A DNA stretch of 64,000 bases, from IMG/VR virus record IMGVR_UViG_3300045988_117710. One strand, written 5' to 3'. Position 1 is the stretch's first letter. Each line of letters starts with the position of its first letter. The stretch is from a virus. Both the position numbers and the translations under genes were made by a program. The notes under the pieces were generated by a model that worked only from the letters and a program-made list of their open reading frames with translations, made no database searches and was not told the origin of the DNA. Shown here piece by piece: positions 17,148 to 37,483 of this stretch.

Positions 17148-17238
17148 TATTCGTATATTACAATGACAATTCTTTAGTTGTCATTTGTATGTCACGAGTA
17201 ACCCCATACTCAGTGAATAGCACTCTATACGAGTGCTT
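17148..17238 (+). ncRNA. candidate small RNA: TCGTATATTA promoter-like motif followed by two hairpins ending in a terminator
   Basis: attcgtatattacaat, then aatgacaa...ttgtcatt hairpin, then agcactc-tatac-gagtgct + TTTTTT. Confidence 0.3.
17212..17238 (+). terminator. rho-independent terminator
   Basis: agcactctatacgagtgct + TTTTTT. Confidence 0.65.
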
Positions 17239-17266: not shown

Positions 17267-18934
17267 ATGGTTAATGTTTTCTTTATTAGTGATTTACATC
17301 TTAATCATGGCAATATTATTGATTATTGTGATCGTCAGTTTAATAGTATTCAGGAGATGAATGATACTATTGTTAGGAATTGGAATAGTGTTGTAGGTCC
17401 AGATGATATAGTTTATTTTCTAGGTGATTTTGCTTTAGGTAGAGATGTAGATAAGGTTTATGAGGAGTATTCGAAGCTTCTGAATGGCACTATCTATTTC
17501 TTAAGAGGAAATCATGATAAGTCTAGATCTGTTGTATCTAGGTATTTTAATTTAATCGATACAGGTACGACTGTTTCTTATAATGATTCTCATTTCATTC
17601 TTTCCCATCATCCTTTATATGATTCAGAGATTCCTAAGGGATATGTTAATCTTCATGGTCATATTCACAATAACAAGTTGAGTAGGGTTTATGATTCTGG
17701 ATGTCATTTTAATGTTTCTGCTGATGTTACTGATTTCACACCATATTTCGTAAAGAATATTATAGATGATATTTCCTCTGGTTCTTTAGTTCCAAAGAGA
17801 ACTGGGGTTGATAGAGTTAGGAAGGATGATGGTAGTATGAGAAAGTTAGCTACAGTGCAAACTATTTTAAATGTTGAACCTATACCTGATGCTGATGCAA
17901 TTGAGGTTGTTACAGTTAAGGGTTGGAAGGTTGTTGTAAAGAAGGGTGAGTATCAAGTTGGTGATAAGGTAGTTTATTTCGAAATTGATTCACTTATTCC
18001 AAGAAGTTCAATAACAGAGTTTTTGATGGAAGATGAGTATATGTTGTCTGCTAGATTAAGAACTAGAAAATTAAGAGGTCAAGTATCTCAAGGTTTAGTT
18101 ATTTCTTTAGAAGATTCTCTTGTTATGGCTGAAGAGTTAAATGGTGCTGTTGAGTTATTTGATACTGATGATGGTACAGATGTTTCTGATTTACTTCATG
18201 TTGAGAAGTATGAACCACCTGTTACTTATGGTAACGAGGGTAGATGTGTTGCTTGGCCATTTACATTGACTAAAACTGATGAAGAGAGAATTCAAAATAT
18301 TCCTGAAGTTATTGATAAGTTGATCGAGAATGGAACTCATTTATGTATTTCAGTTAAGTTAGATGGTACTTCTATGACTGTAGTACATCAACCAGATGGT
18401 ATTCATGTAGCTGGTAGAAACAATGATTTTGATAAGACAGATGATTTTGCTTTCAATAATAAGTATTGGTCTACAGCTCGAAGATATGGTGTTACAGATG
18501 CTTTAGAAGAAGCCCATATAAATAATCCAGACAAATACTTTGCTGTTCAAGGTGAGTTAGTTGGTCCTGGTATTCAAGGTAATAAGATGAATTTATCAGA
18601 TTTGAATTATTATATCTTTAACTTATTTGTTTCTGAAGATGAATGCAGAACTTGGAAGAAGTTAGGTTATGAAGAATTAGTTCAGTTCTGTATTGATTAT
18701 GATCTTACTCATGTTCCTTATATTTATTCAGATTTCGAATTGAAGGCACATGGTTTAGTAGATGTTGATAGTATTCTTAAGTTTGCGGAAGGTACTTATA
18801 GAGATAATGCCGAGGGTTATTTCCCAAATGCTAAAGCCAATCAACAAAGAGAGGGGTTAGTGTTTAGAACTCTTGATCATCAATTCTCTTTTAAGGTTGT
18901 TAATAATATCTTCTTACTTAAGGGAGGAGAATAA
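17267..18934 (+). CDS. fusion of calcineurin-type metallophosphoesterase (N) and polynucleotide ligase-like nucleotidyltransferase (C); candidate RNA-repair healing/sealing enzyme (555 aa)
   Basis: AAGGAGG RBS; N: FISDLHLNHG / LGDFALGRD / RGNHD phosphoesterase motifs; C: SVKLDGTSM (motif I KxDG), VQGELVG (III), REGLVFR (IV). Confidence 0.7.
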   Translation: MVNVFFISDLHLNHGNIIDYCDRQFNSIQEMNDTIVRNWNSVVGPDDIVYFLGDFALGRDVDKVYEEYSKLLNGTIYFLRGNHDKSRSVVSRYFNLIDTGTTVSYNDSHFILSHHPLYDSEIPKGYVNLHGHIHNNKLSRVYDSGCHFNVSADVTDFTPYFVKNIIDDISSGSLVPKRTGVDRVRKDDGSMRKLATVQTILNVEPIPDADAIEVVTVKGWKVVVKKGEYQVGDKVVYFEIDSLIPRSSITEFLMEDEYMLSARLRTRKLRGQVSQGLVISLEDSLVMAEELNGAVELFDTDDGTDVSDLLHVEKYEPPVTYGNEGRCVAWPFTLTKTDEERIQNIPEVIDKLIENGTHLCISVKLDGTSMTVVHQPDGIHVAGRNNDFDKTDDFAFNNKYWSTARRYGVTDALEEAHINNPDKYFAVQGELVGPGIQGNKMNLSDLNYYIFNLFVSEDECRTWKKLGYEELVQFCIDYDLTHVPYIYSDFELKAHGLVDVDSILKFAEGTYRDNAEGYFPNAKANQQREGLVFRTLDHQFSFKVVNNIFLLKGGE

Positions 18935-28356: not shown

Positions 28357-28842
28357 ATGTATACGAATACTGAGATGTATCAACACGCGAAGTTAGAATT
28401 AGATAAGTTGTTAGAACTTGAGAGAAAGGATAATCTTAAACGTTCTGTAGAAGAGTTAGAGAACGAAGTTGCAATGTTTGATGGCAAGACTCCACAAGAG
28501 TTTATGAATGATGCTATTCTTAATGTTATTGCTTCTATCAATTCAGAAATTAATTCTTATAATTCTATGGATTATTTACTTAATACTGTTTATGATTTAG
28601 TTAAGTTTAGAAATCTTACACCACTTACTTTAGGAGATGAAGAGTGGGTTCATGTTTTAGATGATCCTGATAGAGGAAGTGTTTATCAGAATATTAGAAA
28701 CTTTGCAGTGTTTAAAGATGACAAGAATGGTGTATATCATTCTGATGGACAAGAGATGCTTAATATTGCTTGTGGTAAGTATCCAGAGTCTGGTGAAGTA
28801 ATGGAAGTTTATCAAGATAATGAAGGAGAGTCTAATGAGTAG
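28357..28842 (+). CDS. hypothetical protein (161 aa)
   Basis: GAAGGAG RBS. Confidence 0.6.
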   Translation: MYTNTEMYQHAKLELDKLLELERKDNLKRSVEELENEVAMFDGKTPQEFMNDAILNVIASINSEINSYNSMDYLLNTVYDLVKFRNLTPLTLGDEEWVHVLDDPDRGSVYQNIRNFAVFKDDKNGVYHSDGQEMLNIACGKYPESGEVMEVYQDNEGESNE

Positions 28843-30241: not shown

Positions 30242-30459
30242 TGTTTGATGTTTCTAATGTTATAATAATGTTGTTATGTGTTTATTATCAAGAAGGTAAA
30301 AAGTTGGGTGAGATAGTAGATATTGGAGGAGCAAAGTTTAGGTTAGTTTTATCTGACCAACCTGTTGAGGAAGAACCTGGTGTTTCACTTTTCAGAATTG
30401 GTCCTGTGTCTACTATTGTTAAGTATTTCGAAGGATTGAATGATAATGGAGAAGTTTAA
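30241..30459 (+). CDS. hypothetical protein (72 aa)
   Basis: GAAGAGGAG RBS; ATGA overlap with previous stop. Confidence 0.4.
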   Translation: MFDVSNVIIMLLCVYYQEGKKLGEIVDIGGAKFRLVLSDQPVEEEPGVSLFRIGPVSTIVKYFEGLNDNGEV

Positions 30460-31243
30460 GTTTTTTGTAGTTTCTGATGTTCATGGACATTACTCGGAAT
30501 TACGTAGAGCTCTTAAGAGAGCAGGATTTAAGGTTACTGAACCTAGTCATAAGTTGGTTGTGGTTGGTGATTCTTTCGATCGTGGTAGTGAGTCTTATGA
30601 ATTGTATAAGTGGCTTTCTAAACTTATTAAGAAGGGGAAAGCAATTGTGTTGCGAGGTAATCATACCTATTTCTTTGAGTCTGTTCTTAATAAGACAGAG
30701 CGAGGATTTAATTTCCAACACAATGGTTTAGATAAGACAATAGATAGTTTTATGCATCAGACTAGAGCATTTGAGATGTTTCTATTGTTTAATAATTTAG
30801 AGTATAATCAAGAGAGTTTTGATAAGTTTATTTCTTATGTTTCTGATTCTATTCAGAAGGAGTTTCCTACTATTAAGGAAGAAATTGAAGCTCTACCAGA
30901 TTATTTCGAGACTCAGAATTATATTTTTACTCATGGGATCATATTCAATAATCAGGATTTCAGAAATACTCCTACGAGTTATTGGAGGAAAGAGAATCAT
31001 TGGGCAAAGCCAGAAGATTATGCAACTGGTTATTGGAATATGACTGGGAAGACTATTGTTGTAGGTCATTTGGATACTGAAACTATTAAGAGAGCTTTGA
31101 AGAGAAGAGAGCATCTAGAGTTAGTTCAGGATAGGCCTTATCATACTTTGTATGTTAAACAGTTTGATACTTTCTTTTTGGATGGTTGTACTATTTTAAC
31201 AAAGAGAATAAATGTATTGATTGTTGAAGATTTTATGGTATAA
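30440..31243 (+). CDS. PPP-family metallophosphatase (lambda-phosphatase / ApaH-like Ser/Thr phosphatase), 267 aa
   Basis: Motifs VVSDVHGH, VVVGDSFDRG (GDxxDRG), LRGNHT (GNHE-like). Confidence 0.65.
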   Translation: MIMEKFKFFVVSDVHGHYSELRRALKRAGFKVTEPSHKLVVVGDSFDRGSESYELYKWLSKLIKKGKAIVLRGNHTYFFESVLNKTERGFNFQHNGLDKTIDSFMHQTRAFEMFLLFNNLEYNQESFDKFISYVSDSIQKEFPTIKEEIEALPDYFETQNYIFTHGIIFNNQDFRNTPTSYWRKENHWAKPEDYATGYWNMTGKTIVVGHLDTETIKRALKRREHLELVQDRPYHTLYVKQFDTFFLDGCTILTKRINVLIVEDFMV

Positions 31244-31258
31244 TGTAAATATACTTCG

Positions 31259-31275
31259 TATATAATATTAGTAGC
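31259..31275 (+). promoter_or_regulatory. ACTTCGTATATAATATT promoter-like motif heading ORF-free region
   Basis: Family motif 15 nt after stop of 30440 gene. Confidence 0.45.
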
Positions 31276-31660
31276 ATATGTTAGTTCCTTTTTAGTCTTA
31301 CTGGTCAAGAACTTACTAACCGCTACAAACATTACCTCTTAATGTAGAAGCTACTGCAAAAGAATGTTCCTTGTAGCAAATGTTAGCTGGGTTTACCCGG
31401 CGTATCAGTCCTTCGGGACAAGAATTACTGAAGTCCTATTATTCAATGAGGGAAGTCTAATAGGTTGGAGCTATTGAGAGTTCTGTAATCTTTGGGTTAC
31501 ATTCCGCAAGACCTTATTCTACTAATTCTGTTTTTGATTCAGCAAATGAGTGTTCCTTTTATGGAAAATGAAATGGGTTCAATGTCATTACACTCCGCTG
31601 AAGTTTATTTTGAACTTCCTATTGGAAGATGCTTACAACTACATTACGAAGTATTGTTAA
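31276..31660 (+). ncRNA. candidate structured non-coding RNA (about 385 nt) between promoter-like motif and terminator
   Basis: No ORF of 60 aa or more on the + strand in about 520 bp (one overlapping minus-strand ORF, 31141-31332, judged spurious) in an otherwise gene-dense genome; GC about 40% vs about 31%; C(UUCG)G tetraloop hairpin cagtccttcgggac; internal direct repeats tagcatatgttag / tagcaaatgttag. Confidence 0.35.
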
Positions 31661-31663
31661 GGC

Positions 31664-31687
31664 ACACTTAGGTGTGTCTTTTTCGTA
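31664..31687 (+). terminator. putative terminator (cacac-ttag-gtgtg + TCTTTTT)
   Basis: Short stem + T-run. Confidence 0.4.
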
Positions 31688-31691
31688 TAAT
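31681..31691 (+). promoter_or_regulatory. TTTCGTATAAT promoter-like motif
   Basis: Exact consensus; followed by TTTAGAAAGGA RBS-like remnant without ORF. Confidence 0.45.
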
Positions 31692-31714
31692 AATTTAGAA
31701 AGGAATCTAAAGTG

Positions 31715-31743
31715 TTGACTTTTATTTTCCTTTATTATATAAT
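31715..31743 (+). promoter_or_regulatory. sigma-A-type promoter TTGACT-17-TATAAT
   Basis: Perfect -35/-10 hexamers, 17-nt spacer, about 25 nt upstream of gene 31771. Confidence 0.6.
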
Positions 31744-31770
31744 TAACTTATCATTAGAGAGGTGAATGTT

Positions 31771-32082
31771 ATGAGAAAGTTAATGAGCAATGAGGATTGT
31801 ACATACTTATATGATAGGGAGAGTAAGTTATTATATGTTTCTTTATCATTTGAGGATCTTACTAATTTAGATACTTGTGAGGATTATTTTGTGGTTGATG
31901 TTTATAACTATACTGATGGTCCTGATGCTATTTCTGAATTAGTACATTTTTGTAAGGGTTTGGATAGTGTTGAAGATAGATATGAGTCTATTAGAAGTGT
32001 GTATGGTTCTGAAGTTGATGAATCCACTGGGCAAGAGATTGTTGGTGGAAATATTTGTATAGAGGATGTGGATTTTATATGA
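31771..32082 (+). CDS. hypothetical acidic protein (103 aa)
   Basis: AGAGAGGTGA RBS. Confidence 0.55.
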   Translation: MRKLMSNEDCTYLYDRESKLLYVSLSFEDLTNLDTCEDYFVVDVYNYTDGPDAISELVHFCKGLDSVEDRYESIRSVYGSEVDESTGQEIVGGNICIEDVDFI

Positions 32083-33466: not shown

Positions 33467-33665
33467 TATAGGTGTTACAAACCTAGATATCGGTTGGTCC
33501 TATTAATACTAATACTAACAATCAAAACATTAATTTTAATAAGGATATTATTAAACAAGAGAAAGACAATATTTAGAGGGTACAGATTATCAAGAGAGTA
33601 AAATATAATTTAGATGGTAACGATTATTTAAACTTTAAGAAATTTTAATTAAGAGGTGATACAAT

Positions 33666-34724
33666 TTGAGAGTTAAAGTTAAAGATTTTAATTGTATTCG
33701 AGAAGCTGAGTTTCAGTTCTTACCTGGATTAACTGTATTACAAGGTGAATCCAATGGTGGGAAGAGTTCAGTGTTCAGAGCGATTGAGAATACAATATTT
33801 AATCAGTCTGGGACAGCAAATGTTCAGCATGGTAAGCAGTTTTACTTGGTAGGGATTGAGAATAATGGTCATAAGGTTGTATTCAAGAAGGGTAAAGCTG
33901 GTGGAGTGTATAAGGTTGATGATGTAGAGTATTCTAAAGTTGGAGTCGGACAGGTGGAACAAGTAGCAGACGCTCTTGGGATCCGAGAAACTGTGCTTGC
34001 GGGAGAGAAGATTCGATTGAACTTCTGGAGTCAGATGGGATATCCGTTCTTGCTTGATAGAAGTCCGGGGCAGTTATACAAGTTTATTGTAGACAGCAGT
34101 GAATCGGAGTCGCTTTCAAGCGTTCTGAAGGACATCGCTAAGGACATCAAGGACACCAATGCGAGTATCGTGGCGAACGATAGTAAGTTAGATCTTCTTC
34201 ATTCACAACTTACTACGACCGAGGAGAGACTTCGTGATGCGGAGAAGACTGAGGAAACTTGTAAAGCGATTATAGCGATGGATTCTGAATACAATTTCAT
34301 TAATTCATTGGATTCAGAGATTCAAGCGTTCAATCGTGTATCTACTAATCTTGGAGAGCTTCAAGCTTCTCTGATAACTATTCCGAACCTAGATACTTCA
34401 ACTTTAGATGTGGCTTATCAAGATTATCAAGTTGTTCCTGTGGTAGAGGAGTATCAGAAGAAGTCCCAAGAACTTCATTCTGCTGAGGAGTCTCTATCAC
34501 AAATCAATTCCAAGATTGAAATCATTCAGGATATAGATGATGTTGATATTAGTGTTCTTAATACCATTCAGTCTGCTATTAATGAATATAATTCAGTTAT
34601 GTATGAATTATCCAATGAACACTCTAGATTGGGTGAGTTGGATCTTATGATTGAGCAGTGCAGGGAAGAGTTGAAAGAATTCAAAGTTTGTCCTCTATGT
34701 GGAGGAGAGATTCATGAGGGTTAG
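33666..34724 (+). CDS. SbcC/Rad50-like ATPase, N-terminal head (Walker A) + coiled coil + CxxC zinc hook (fragment 1 of a split gene), 352 aa
   Basis: AAGAGGTGA RBS, TTG start; FLPGLTVLQGESNGGKSSVFRAI Walker A; coiled coil; terminal VCPLCGGEIHEG hook-like CxxC. Confidence 0.65.
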   Translation: MRVKVKDFNCIREAEFQFLPGLTVLQGESNGGKSSVFRAIENTIFNQSGTANVQHGKQFYLVGIENNGHKVVFKKGKAGGVYKVDDVEYSKVGVGQVEQVADALGIRETVLAGEKIRLNFWSQMGYPFLLDRSPGQLYKFIVDSSESESLSSVLKDIAKDIKDTNASIVANDSKLDLLHSQLTTTEERLRDAEKTEETCKAIIAMDSEYNFINSLDSEIQAFNRVSTNLGELQASLITIPNLDTSTLDVAYQDYQVVPVVEEYQKKSQELHSAEESLSQINSKIEIIQDIDDVDISVLNTIQSAINEYNSVMYELSNEHSRLGELDLMIEQCREELKEFKVCPLCGGEIHEG

Positions 34725-35031
34725 TACACATGGGAAGAAGAGAATGAGAGAACGAGTTCAATCTTCCCTAACTAATCGAAATGTTAATTCTCTGTTCAAG
34801 ACAGCTTTACATAAGGGTTATACTCCGAAAGCATTTATTGATGGTGACTTCAAGAAGTATTTGATGGCACATTCGAAGAAGAATTCAGTTAAGGTTTTCC
34901 AAGACCATATGTACTTATATAATGGTTCAAGAAAGATTTTGTACACAGTGTGGAAGGTTCCTAACCAATTTCTACCTGTGGAACAGTTTCTGAAGAGAAA
35001 CCAACCGAATCCTAATCAATTAAGTAAATAG
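34714..35031 (+). CDS. basic hypothetical protein (105 aa) interrupting the SbcC-like reading frames
   Basis: GGAGGAGAG RBS; Lys/Arg-rich; no nuclease motif recognised. Confidence 0.45.
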   Translation: MRVSTHGKKRMRERVQSSLTNRNVNSLFKTALHKGYTPKAFIDGDFKKYLMAHSKKNSVKVFQDHMYLYNGSRKILYTVWKVPNQFLPVEQFLKRNQPNPNQLSK

Positions 35032-35061
35032 TTTCGTAATTTCAAATGAGAGGTGATTTTA

Positions 35062-35310
35062 ATGAGTAATGATGAATTAGTTACTAGGTATAATAATATT
35101 AAGAGAAAGCAACAAGATTTCGAGAATCAGAAGATTCAAGTGGAGACTTCTATTAATATTAAGAAGACTGAGCTTGAAGCTGTGAAGACAAGATTACAAG
35201 AGTTAGGAGTTACTGATTTTGACAATCTAGATGCTTTTATTCAAGCGAAGAGAGAACAATTTGATAAGACTTTACAAGAGTTGGAGGCGAGGTTGAATGG
35301 TTCAGTATAG
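35062..35310 (+). CDS. coiled-coil protein (82 aa), probable SbcC-like coiled-coil fragment
   Basis: GAGAGGTGA RBS; continuous heptad-like sequence. Confidence 0.45.
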   Translation: MSNDELVTRYNNIKRKQQDFENQKIQVETSINIKKTELEAVKTRLQELGVTDFDNLDAFIQAKREQFDKTLQELEARLNGSV

Positions 35311-35938
35311 TCAACTTAAGTCTGTTGCTGTTTCAAAGCTTTCAGAGATTAATGTGTTCAGAGAGCAGAGAAACAATTTCATCCTATCTATTGAGGATGT
35401 TACTAAGGATAATGATAGATTGAAGGAGCAAATCAATCTTCTTACTGAGTCTTTAGAAGTAGTTAAGGTTTGTATTAATAAGTTGTCTGAAGGACATATA
35501 TCTCATTTACAAGAGCTTGTTAATAGTATGCTTAATACTGTGTTCTATGATAAGAAGTATTCTATTGATATGCAACTTAATGATACAAAGAATGGTAAGG
35601 TTTTAGATTTATTCCTTATTGATTCTACTCTATCTGATGAGGATCCTGTTGTTACAGAGCTTTCTTCTAATGGTGGAGGTTTACAAACTGTTGTAGGGTT
35701 TGTACTTCAGATTTATTTCATTATTTATTTTAAGCAAGAGAGAATTCTATTCTTGGATGAAGCTTTGTCTGCTGTTTCTTCAGAGTATATTCCTACTCTA
35801 GTGGATTTTATGCGAGGGTTAGTAGACAAGTATCAATTTAAGTTTGTAGCAATATTCCATGATACTAGATTTTCTGAATATGCTGATACAATTTATCAAG
35901 TGTCTAATGGCACTGCCAAGTTGGTTACACAGGAGTGA
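35297..35938 (+). CDS. SbcC/Rad50-like ATPase C-terminal head (signature, Walker B, D-loop), 213 aa
   Basis: LSSNGGGLQTVVGF (ABC signature), RILFLDEALSAVS (Walker B/D-loop), FHDTRF H-loop-like. Confidence 0.65.
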   Translation: MVQYSQLKSVAVSKLSEINVFREQRNNFILSIEDVTKDNDRLKEQINLLTESLEVVKVCINKLSEGHISHLQELVNSMLNTVFYDKKYSIDMQLNDTKNGKVLDLFLIDSTLSDEDPVVTELSSNGGGLQTVVGFVLQIYFIIYFKQERILFLDEALSAVSSEYIPTLVDFMRGLVDKYQFKFVAIFHDTRFSEYADTIYQVSNGTAKLVTQE

Positions 35939-35978: not shown

Positions 35979-35990
35979 TTTCGTATAACT
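35979..35990 (+). promoter_or_regulatory. TTTCGTATAACT promoter-like motif
   Basis: Family motif; followed by about 225-nt GC-richer leader. Confidence 0.45.
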
Positions 35991-36217
35991 TATTAGAGTA
36001 TACTACTCTACGATGTCCCAAGTCCAAAAGATAATGACTCGTTGATTGGTTTGGAGTATACCAGTCAAGATAAAACTTGTTCAATCGGTAAGCAGCCAGT
36101 TTGGAGGTAAAGTCTTTGTAACACCTTTCCTCTGTGGAAATTGTTGCTGATGATGTCTAGAAACAAATACTCCATTCTAATTTGTTATTAGATTTTTTTC
36201 AAGAAGGAGGTTATTAT

Positions 36218-37483
36218 ATGGAATTTGAAAAAGATTTAAATATAGATCCATTTGCAAGTACTGATGCTGTTAGTGATAACTTAAGTGCTTTCGATGGAGA
36301 TGAAGCTGAAGATTCTACTGTGTTAGAAGGTTTCAACATTCCTGAAGAGAAAGAATTCCCACATATCAAATTAAATTCTAGAGATTTCTTAAATGCTTTA
36401 GGTACTTGTGGAACTGTTCTTGAGAAGATGAGCACAGATAGTATTTTCAAGACAGTAATGATTCAAGTTGACGGTAAGAATTGTAATTTCAAGGTTATTG
36501 GTCCTGTTTCTAAATTACATTATCATTGTGGTATTATGAATACTAATGATGATTTAATTCTAACTGATACTTTATTCATTAATCACGATTTACTTACTAA
36601 GGTTTGTAAGGTTCTTGGTTCTAGTATTTATATCATTAAGAAAGATGATGGTATTTACTTAAGACTTGTTGGTGGAGACTTAAAGGTTGAAACTGAAGAA
36701 CATAATGTAGAAAGATTTGAATTACCAGAAGGGGCATTAACTGAAATTCTTAATGTTGAAACTGGTAGATTTGGTGCAATGCTATCTAACTTTGAAAGTT
36801 TAGTTAATGCTGCAATCAAGTCATCTGATAAGAGAATATTCTTACACAACAATGGTGTGTATTTTAATGATTTATCTACTTGGACAAAAGCAGAGTTCGA
36901 GGGTATCAACAATGATTTGATATTAAGAGGTGTTGATATTAAGGTATTAAAGAAACTTATTGATACTAGTACAAGTCAAACTGTTGTATTTAATAAGGTA
37001 GATAATAAGTTCAATTATGTTCTTGTTAATACTACTAATTGTACATTTGCTTTTATAGCTGATTCTAATATCTTTGATACTAACTTCCTAGATGGTGCAA
37101 ATCTTGAGTCTTGTGCTGCTAATGGTGTAGATGTTGAAGCGAAGTTACTTAAGAATTATGCTACTTTAAGTACAGTGTTACCTAATGCATCTGAATATTT
37201 AACTTTATTAGTTTCTGATGAGAAATTCTTCAGTGTTGTAGAACAAAAGACTACTGGATTAAGTAAGTTTGCATTAGATATTACTTCTAACAATAAATCA
37301 TTAGATATGAAAACTCCTGCTAGAGTTAATTCTCGTAAATTAGATTTATTATTAGCTGCTCTTAATTGTACAGGATCTGTTAGAGTTTATATGAGTGAAG
37401 ATAATAACTTTGTTTATGTATGTAAAGTTCCTACAGATACTAAAGTCAAGAATGCTGTTTATAGTTTAATTATGAAAGCGTAG
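36218..37483 (+). CDS. DNA polymerase sliding clamp (beta-clamp/DnaN-like) candidate, about 421 aa
   Basis: GAAGGAGG RBS; acidic N-terminal tail then clamp-like blocks (KRIFLHNNGVYFND resembles DVRYYLNGMLFE; C-terminal VRVYMSEDNNFVYV resembles VRMMLTDSVSSVQI); recall-based, tentative. Confidence 0.45.
   Translation: MEFEKDLNIDPFASTDAVSDNLSAFDGDEAEDSTVLEGFNIPEEKEFPHIKLNSRDFLNALGTCGTVLEKMSTDSIFKTVMIQVDGKNCNFKVIGPVSKLHYHCGIMNTNDDLILTDTLFINHDLLTKVCKVLGSSIYIIKKDDGIYLRLVGGDLKVETEEHNVERFELPEGALTEILNVETGRFGAMLSNFESLVNAAIKSSDKRIFLHNNGVYFNDLSTWTKAEFEGINNDLILRGVDIKVLKKLIDTSTSQTVVFNKVDNKFNYVLVNTTNCTFAFIADSNIFDTNFLDGANLESCAANGVDVEAKLLKNYATLSTVLPNASEYLTLLVSDEKFFSVVEQKTTGLSKFALDITSNNKSLDMKTPARVNSRKLDLLLAALNCTGSVRVYMSEDNNFVYVCKVPTDTKVKNAVYSLIMKA

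Follow-up and report, generated by a model that had tools for sequence, protein, structure and literature searches.

A predicted structured RNA with a repeated internal module in a clade of large uncultivated phages

A gene-free stretch in a densely coded phage genome

The DNA analysed here is a stretch of 64,000 nt (hereafter the window) from the IMG/VR virus record IMGVR_UViG_3300045988_117710, and the element in question is a gene-free stretch at positions 31244-31761 that very probably harbors a real gene for a structured noncoding RNA (ncRNA) of about 415 nt. Upstream of this stretch lies a gene for a Metallophos (NinI-like) phosphatase (30440-31243, with its stop at 31243), and downstream of it an acidic open reading frame (ORF) of 103 aa (31771-32082, ATG at 31771) overlaps the start of a gene for an ATP-dependent DNA ligase. 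A preliminary description of the locus, which had proposed a candidate novel ncRNA, counted no ORF of at least 60 aa on the + strand. The longest + strand ORF between 31243 and 31771 spans 59 aa from a TTG start (31492-31671) and the rest do not exceed 37 aa; that count is therefore true, if barely, and the lack of ORF conservation among relatives counts for more than any limit on ORF length. The GC-richer composition that had been noted is also borne out: GC content is 0.38-0.40 at 31300-31600, whereas the surroundings have about 0.30 (range of the flanks, about 0.27-0.35), and GC skew falls from 0.3-0.5 to about 0.1 inside the gene-free stretch. Single-sequence folding yields a z-score of -2.8 on the + strand and of -4.7 on the - strand.

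Conservation among related phages

A DNA-level similarity search against 50,697 phage records returned no match for the window, and the closest known phage proteins are only 23-29% identical to those encoded in it, the matches of the phosphatase falling mainly among myoviruses of Enterococcus, Listeria, and Staphylococcus. Together with the Shine-Dalgarno sequences of the phage, these best protein matches suggest a low-GC Bacillota host. Searching a large protein collection for homologues of the phosphatase and the acidic ORF led to relatives, all of them metagenomic contigs (designated here by L numbers), one of which (L153) is 182 kb long. In every contig with a phosphatase at least 58% identical, a gene-free gap of 390-585 bp extends from the phosphatase to a small ORF and the ligase. 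Eleven distinct RNA sequences were recovered from these loci, where the flanking phosphatase is 58-99% identical, and the 5' part of the RNA is present in a partial contig with a phosphatase 61% identical. The RNA has no counterpart in three remoter loci, two at 41% phosphatase identity, in which nrdD directly follows the phosphatase, and one at 44%. Across the relatives, identity of the RNA to the window sequence declines from 97% to 56%, roughly following that of the third codon positions of the phosphatase gene, while an invariant core persists. The RNA is a feature of a rare clade of large, low-GC, myovirus-like uncultivated phages.

Transcription signals and limits of the predicted transcript

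The window contains 16 copies of the motif TTCGTATA, where 1.3 would be expected; 14 copies lie on the + strand, and almost all are intergenic, typically directly behind the T run of a terminator. In nearly all copies a TAG follows at exactly six bases, and in coding units a Shine-Dalgarno sequence lies immediately 3' of this TAG. The enrichment of the motif, its fixed spacing to TAG, and the adjacent Shine-Dalgarno sequence therefore lead us to infer that TTCGTATA-N6-TAG is a phage-specific general promoter, with transcription starting at or near the TAG. The 17-nt element, in the form TTCGTATA-N6-TAG(A), precedes most transcription units of the window, for instance at 17150, 22970, 28326, 29636, 31255, 31682, and 33455, and further examples are seen at 35980, 39215, 41818, 43581, 56981, 59401, and 63230.

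The bounding signals that had been described for the gene-free stretch are all found there: ACTTCGTATATAAT at its start, a hairpin with a T run at its end, and two promoter-like sites after the latter. TTCGTATAT is invariant in all relatives, and every relative has a hairpin and T run at the position of the terminator, with a different stem sequence; in a 9-kb region, terminator-like sites number 7 against 2.5 expected. Just past the terminator, at 31682, lies TTCGTATAAT, and the two copies of TTCGTATA thus bracket an RNA of about 415 nt (31270-31684, + strand), which these motifs support as a separate predicted transcription unit. A sigma-70-like sequence overlapping the end of the phosphatase gene may represent a second, host-type promoter for the RNA; its TATGnTATAAT is kept in most relatives, which the coding sequence and stop codon could also explain.

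The position of the RNA, on the same strand and directly upstream of the ORF-ligase pair in every relative, is also that of a cis-acting 5' leader, namely a riboswitch, a T-box, or a protein-dependent attenuator controlling read-through of the terminator at 31659-31685 into the acidic ORF and the ligase. Like T-box and riboswitch leaders, the RNA is structured, precedes genes on the same strand, and has a terminator at its end, and its size and complexity are those of large leaders. One or two promoters lie, however, between the terminator and the ORF in all relatives, and the acidic ORF is so independent of read-through; in L156-L160 an extra ORF of 110 aa further separates it from the RNA. 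The linker that connects the last conserved element of the RNA, module C, to the terminator is unconserved, its length lying between about 20 nt (L005) and about 115 nt (L002), and no conserved antiterminator pairing was seen by inspection. With no riboswitch or T-box model matching either, a cis-acting leader is an improbable explanation. In L002, the closest relative, with a phosphatase 99% identical, this 3' tail carries a 57-nt insertion (4600-4660 of L002, against window position 31625), which shows that large changes are tolerated there.

Covariation and the conserved fold

Covariation among the relatives, which had been suggested as a check on the locus, reveals a compensated, conserved structure. 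RNAalifold, applied to 8 sequences, already returned the main helices, and compensation was seen at 22 of 47 pairs. A model of 12 helices and 64 pairs was then written on the window sequence and counted on an alignment of the 11 sequences. In this model 88.6% of the cells are paired, compared with 34-46% after sliding the 3' partners 1-3 columns along, and compensatory double changes are seen at 31 of the 64 pairs, compared with 7-15 for the slid partners. None of 500 shuffles reached the covariation score of the model, a control that overstates significance for related sequences; the slid-partner control is more reliable, because it retains the phylogeny. The weak spots of the model are the linker hairpin (67% paired), helix H2, whose variable length leaves it misaligned in the count (its covariation is visible by eye), and the P1 helix of module B, which is invariant. 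The two hairpins originally noted in the stretch, gtccttcgggac (31408-31419) and ggg-ttta-ccc (31386-31401), are both present and covary in relatives. A closing helix between ATACTTCGTA and TACGAAGTAT, which appears in the minimum free energy fold of the single sequence, was rejected, as relatives do not conserve it and its 5' arm belongs to the promoter. The covariation establishes that the locus specifies a conserved and elaborate RNA fold.

The same set of sequences speaks against a small protein. ORFs of at least 25 aa do not agree in position, frame, or sequence across the 11 relatives; the spacing of invariant anchors varies by numbers that are not multiples of 3 (e.g., 77, 78, 79, 80, 81, and 82 nt); and the ORF that begins at the conserved A/GTG of GTGTTCC is 4-52 aa long, shifting frame between relatives. 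With no conserved ORF or frame, the small-protein reading was rejected. Disruption of a protein gene, one of the cases that would have counted against an RNA, is ruled out, since relatives that have the RNA and relatives that lack it both encode a full-length phosphatase (264-267 aa).

A non-coding island in so densely coded a genome might also be a DNA-level element, such as an origin, a packaging site, or the remnant of a mobile element, or else a decayed or very small protein gene, and the window does hold a 10-bp inverted repeat formed by the two arms of the rejected closing helix. This inverted repeat is conserved only in the closest relatives, however, and TRF detected no tandem array and no iterons. 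Among the paired cells of the model, G-U combinations number 67 against 13 for A-C, which points to a + strand RNA and speaks against a DNA-level or minus-strand element, as do the strand-specific promoter and terminator. Given the absence of a conserved frame and the intact phosphatase, explanations of this kind are very improbable. The compensated structure, the lack of a conserved ORF, and the predicted promoter and terminator of its own are instead the features generally expected of a structured ncRNA gene, and the original proposal of an ncRNA is in this respect supported.

Three copies of one structural module

The central finding on this fold, revealed by covariation, is that a single structural module makes up the RNA in three paralogous copies, here called A, B, and C (Table 1). 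The module consensus reads 5'-NNNGC / A-W-A-W / NNNNGU / UCC ... UU / ACNNNN / Y / GCNNN-3', that is, a 5-bp helix P1, an A-rich internal loop of 3-4 nt opposite a single pyrimidine, a 6-bp helix P2, and a distal loop that opens with UCC and closes with UU. Compensated variation is found at the outer three pairs of P1 and at the inner four of P2. Invariant or nearly so are the internal loop, the two G-C pairs beside it, the final two pairs of P2, and, in the distal loop, UCC and UU. In all 31 modules P2 has exactly 6 bp with the same invariant flanks, and the spacing is fixed. The 17 distinct A and C modules are 95% paired and reach a covariation score of 0.64 against 0.21 when shuffled; pairing reaches 100% in their P2, where a single position shows as many as five pair types.

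Table 1. Positions of the predicted elements of the RNA locus in the window
Feature	Position	Strand	Description
Sigma-70-like promoter	31217-31244	+	TTGATT-16-TGgTATAAT; promoter scan, 10/12 matches with TG extension; overlaps phosphatase stop codon
ACTTCGTATATAAT	31253-31266	+	Start of the gene-free stretch
Promoter-like TTCGTATA-N6-TAG	31255-31271	+	Predicted transcription start at or near 31269-31271
Module A	31271-31326	+	P1 GUAGC/GCUAC, loop AUAU opposite C, P2 GUUAGU/ACUAAC
Linker hairpin between modules A and B	31329-31345	+	ACAUUA-CCUCU-UAAUGU; helix 3; poorly aligned and hence weakly supported
Module B	31355-31508	+	P1 UGC/GCA invariant, loop AAAA opposite C, P2 GAAUGU/ACAUUC
Module B insert (about 130 nt, conserved)	H1 31386-31401; H2 31408-31419; H3 31435-31464; H4 31467-31484; H5 31485-31500		Five hairpins
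Module C	31539-31601	+	P1 UCAGC/GCUGA, loop AAAU opposite C, P2 GAGUGU/ACACUC
3' tail	31602-31658	+	Poorly conserved; local hairpin GAAGUU...AACUUC at 31600-31618
Predicted intrinsic terminator, RNA 3' end	31659-31685 (hairpin 31659-31680 and T run)	+	9-bp stem, UUAG loop; terminator scan
Downstream-unit promoter TTCGTATA-N6-TAG, outside the RNA	31682-31698	+	Ahead of the 103-aa ORF
Downstream-unit promoter TTGACT-17-TATAAT, outside the RNA	31715-31743	+	Ahead of the 103-aa ORF

Modules A and C are the simpler copies. Module A has a distal loop of 29 nt with UCC at its beginning and UU at its end; its helices (1 and 2) are 94% and 97% paired and covary, and it scores 56.8 bits (E = 1e-12) with a covariance model of the module. 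Module C has a distal loop of 35 nt, with UCCUUUU at the beginning, UGGG inside, and UU at the end; its helices (11 and 12) are 93% and 94% paired, with double changes at 7 of 11 pairs, and the model scores it at 67 bits (E = 2e-15). In the 64-kb window the module model finds no copy besides A and C, the next match scoring 13.6 bits. A plain hairpin takes the place of module A in L008, L009, and the partial L133, and the RNA so comprises either two or three modules.

In module B, P2 is 100% paired, with double changes at three of its six pairs, and it encloses a large conserved insert of five hairpins, after which a conserved AGACC follows. H1 is 85% paired, H3 86.5%, H4 92% (double changes at 5 of 6 pairs), and H5 89%. 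H3 carries a conserved loop, UUCAAUGAGGGAAGUC, and the conserved single-stranded elements of module B include UUCAAUGAGGGAAG in the H3 loop, AGGUUGG, GUAAU, and CGCAAGAC. The module motif GCAWA-N4/5-GTTCC, at 31274, 31357, and 31542, is the true repeat of the locus; a further copy at 31374 is lineage-specific and lacks conservation. The direct repeat tagcatatgttag / tagcaaatgttag that had been remarked upon initially is hence only partly meaningful, as a lineage-specific echo of this deeper repeat of modules.

A modular build with strictly invariant unpaired nucleotides would also be compatible with a precursor from which processing releases two or three small hairpin RNAs, one from each module, or with a self-processing ribozyme. 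The linkers between modules are, however, poorly conserved, no conserved junctions resembling cleavage sites were identified, and no Rfam ribozyme model matches the RNA, all of which makes a precursor or catalytic RNA quite improbable.

Searches against known RNA classes

The Infernal search against Rfam that had been suggested at the outset returned no match, supporting the novelty of the RNA: none of the 4227 covariance models of Rfam 15 reaches its gathering threshold anywhere in the 64-kb window, and at E up to 10 the region, its sub-domains, and six homologous loci give scattered chance matches, none of them common to the homologues. The models of ROOL, GOLLD, and OLE are absent even at E up to 10, and riboswitch, T-box, ribozyme, and intron models in Rfam do not match. 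ARAGORN detects no tRNA or tmRNA gene in the window. Within about 5 kb of the locus, Pfam and PHROG annotation reveals no gene for a reverse transcriptase, TnpB/IscB, a recombinase, a Cas protein, or a toxin, and no repeat array is found. The searchable literature contains no description of the RNA. The RNA accordingly belongs to no known family, and its kind is that of the large structured phage RNAs of no assigned function.

Several specific classes can be set aside. A group I or group II intron is rejected, the phosphatase being complete with and without the RNA and no intron model matching. A guide or partner RNA, such as a retron msr/msd, an omega RNA, a bridge RNA, or a CRISPR or tracr RNA, would require an adjacent gene, of which annotation within about 5 kb shows none, or a repeat array, which is absent, and an antitoxin of the type III toxin-antitoxin kind (ToxI-like) is contradicted by the lack of a tandem array and by neighbors that are a phosphatase, an acidic ORF, and a ligase. 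An antisense regulator is rejected, as no complementarity above chance occurs in the window. Mimicry of a tRNA anticodon loop or of a CRISPR repeat was considered too, but relatives do not share the resemblances, and both ideas were discarded.

Pattern scans for the RNA core over JGI metagenomes, GTDB genomes, and, among the matches listed, IMG/VR yielded false positives only, namely a conserved phage gene, which we take to be the portal gene, and a GC-rich coding region. The pattern of a single module gave 17 matches in GTDB genomes and, among the matches listed, IMG/VR, none of them with a complementary P2 stem, and all are so attributed to chance.

A putative trans-acting docking platform

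The best overall explanation of these observations, to which we assign a probability of about 0.45, is that the locus is a free-standing gene for an ncRNA of about 415 nt that serves as a trans-acting, multivalent docking platform. Transcription would proceed from TTCGTATA-N6-TAG, the motif found before most transcription units of the phage; the first nucleotides of the RNA would already be locked in a helix, and the RNA would end at its own intrinsic terminator, with the downstream gene using separate promoters. The RNA would be stable and act in trans. Several copies of a single partner, most likely a protein of host or phage origin, would dock on its two or three identical modules as equivalent sites, and the RNA would operate during infection as a multivalent scaffold or decoy, with the central domain in module B either fixing the fold or binding a second factor. 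Invariant nucleotides at both ends of a helix of fixed length, a freely varying helix interior, and two or three repeats of the arrangement are what a multi-copy recognition surface would be expected to show, and the variation of module number between two and three across the clade is easier to reconcile with additive docking sites than with one precise global fold. The absence of an antisense target above chance in the window can also be counted in favor of docking in trans. That the partner is a protein for which the RNA acts as scaffold or decoy is a more tentative proposal.

A number of points weigh against the docking platform, beyond the leniency of the shuffle control. Its transcription start, 3' end, and stability are deduced from sequence motifs. 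The sample is small and narrow, with 11 sequences from about seven lineages of one phage clade, and so narrow a distribution limits the general importance of the RNA for now. P1 of module B (UGC/GCA) never varies and consequently says nothing on whether these nucleotides pair, and the candidate tertiary pairings of the fold (UUCCUU with the H3 loop, and the H3 loop with the H4 loop) show no covariation in the relatives. No partner protein was found: the adjacent 103-aa ORF is strongly acidic and thus unlikely to bind RNA, and it is a poor candidate also in being only 68 aa long in L153 and in being separated from the RNA by an extra ORF in L156. Lastly, invariant loops at fixed spacing fit intra- or intermolecular docking of RNA on RNA equally well.

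The main rival to the docking platform is an RNA-only architecture in which the modules are tertiary-docking elements of a compact, pseudo-symmetric fold or of a homo-oligomer, with no need for a protein. The many invariant unpaired nucleotides beside freely covarying helices would suit such an architecture, as would the mutual complementarity of conserved loops (UUCAAU of H3 with AUUGAG of H4, and UUCCUU with GAGGGAAG) and the UUCAA of the H3 loop, which we take to fit a T-loop pentamer. A precedent for phage RNA cages exists in ROOL and GOLLD, phage and prophage RNAs of unassigned function that form nanocages through kissing loops and A-minor contacts and that often lie next to tRNA genes or islands in phages and prophages (PMC12286853). 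The RNA described here resembles them in being phage-encoded, several hundred nucleotides long, and composed of multiple helices, with many invariant unpaired nucleotides, and in forming a predicted independent transcription unit with no known protein partner (PMC12286853). It differs from both in its length (about 415 nt versus >500 to >800 nt), in the lack of a match to Rfam models, theirs and that of OLE included, in having no tRNA genes nearby, and in an internal three-fold repeat of modules, with which ROOL and GOLLD have not been described. Furthermore, the loop-loop pairings are left uncompensated by the variants of L005 and L009, and a pseudoknot between UUCCUU and the H3 loop was rejected for lack of compensatory support. 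Module A is also dispensable in some relatives, in better agreement with additive sites than with a precise cage. On this evidence we consider an RNA-only architecture unlikely.

Other described RNAs offer partial parallels to the docking platform. In the sponge RNAs CsrB and RsmZ, a short recognition element is repeated within a stable, trans-acting RNA that ends in a terminator, and its copy number varies. The present RNA shares the repeated element, the terminator at its end, and the variation in copy number between relatives, and action in trans is proposed for it here; its element is, however, a two-helix module of 55-63 nt with an internal loop rather than a GGA hairpin loop, it has only two or three copies, and it is encoded by a phage. 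The pRNA of phi29-type phages is about 170 nt long and encoded near the genome end of small podoviruses. Like the present RNA it is phage-encoded and structured, and it acts as a multi-copy structural component (PMC12286853). The Rfam model of pRNA does not match the present RNA, however, and the present phage is large and myovirus-like, with baseplate proteins encoded in the window and a related contig of 182 kb. ToxI-type RNAs and the pseudo-ToxI decoys of phages are, like the present RNA, repetitive, and such RNAs can be carried by phages as anti-defence decoys. ToxI consists of head-to-tail, near-identical repeats of 34-45 nt beside a toxin gene, whereas the present modules are alike only in their ends and loops, form no tandem repeat, and have no adjacent toxin gene.

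To our knowledge, few bacterial or phage ncRNAs longer than 300 nt with a complex conserved structure have been described, and among them OLE, GOLLD, ROOL, and raiA have repeatedly revealed unexpected biology. What makes the present RNA noteworthy is its clear covariation support, its sharply defined predicted ends, and its unusual internal repeat of modules. Should its modules bind a protein of the host or the phage, it would provide a new case in which a large phage manipulates its host through RNA; should it assemble on its own, the few natural RNA-only architectures would gain another fold. A bolder and rather doubtful extension is that it founds a new class of large phage RNAs in which a module is repeated internally two or three times, and that it acts during infection as a multivalent decoy or cage that captures a host factor. 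Were this true, the captured factor might be an immune effector or a global RNA-binding protein, and the RNA would be a device for counter-defence or take-over with no described relative.

Neighboring genes and other gene-free stretches

The 103-aa acidic ORF has no family match and is found only in the present phage clade (9 clusters among 5.8 billion). Relatives keep the C-terminal 30 residues almost unchanged, and the 68-aa form in the 182-kb relative is truncated. About 2.4 kb upstream of the RNA there would be a counter-defence gene, if a family assignment and a presumed homology both hold: the presumed homologues of 28357-28842, which occupy the same position in L001, L002, L005, and L153 and encode 159-161 aa, have a precomputed match to Pfam Tad3 (PF25185), which we take to be an anti-Thoeris family. 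Farther upstream, 17267-18934 encodes a 555-aa protein in which a phosphoesterase (phrog_547) is fused to an RNA ligase (phrog_968), an enzyme of the RNA-repair type, and the phage therefore invests in RNA repair.

Downstream of the ligase, the region 33666-35938 encodes an SbcC/Rad50-like ATPase as consecutive ORFs of 352 aa (AAA_23), 110 aa, 85 aa, and 213 aa (ATPase), and this split layout is also present in the 182-kb relative. Within the region, GC content at 33800-34300 reaches 0.43-0.46, well over the genome average. Two gene-free gaps near these genes had been taken initially for smaller GC-richer leaders, a view that stands for one of them only. The gap upstream of the SbcC-like gene (33467-33665) is AT-rich, with a GC content of 0.21-0.29; it is conserved relative to L153 and has diverged in L158. 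The second gap (35991-36217) is indeed GC-richer, with a terminator and a TTCGTATA motif ahead of it. Identity to its counterpart in the 182-kb relative (14070-14375 of L153) is 91%. The gap shows at least one apparent compensatory change between the two sequences available (TGGT..ACCA to TGGC..GCCA), and it may represent another structured leader or ncRNA, upstream of the gene at 36182-37483.

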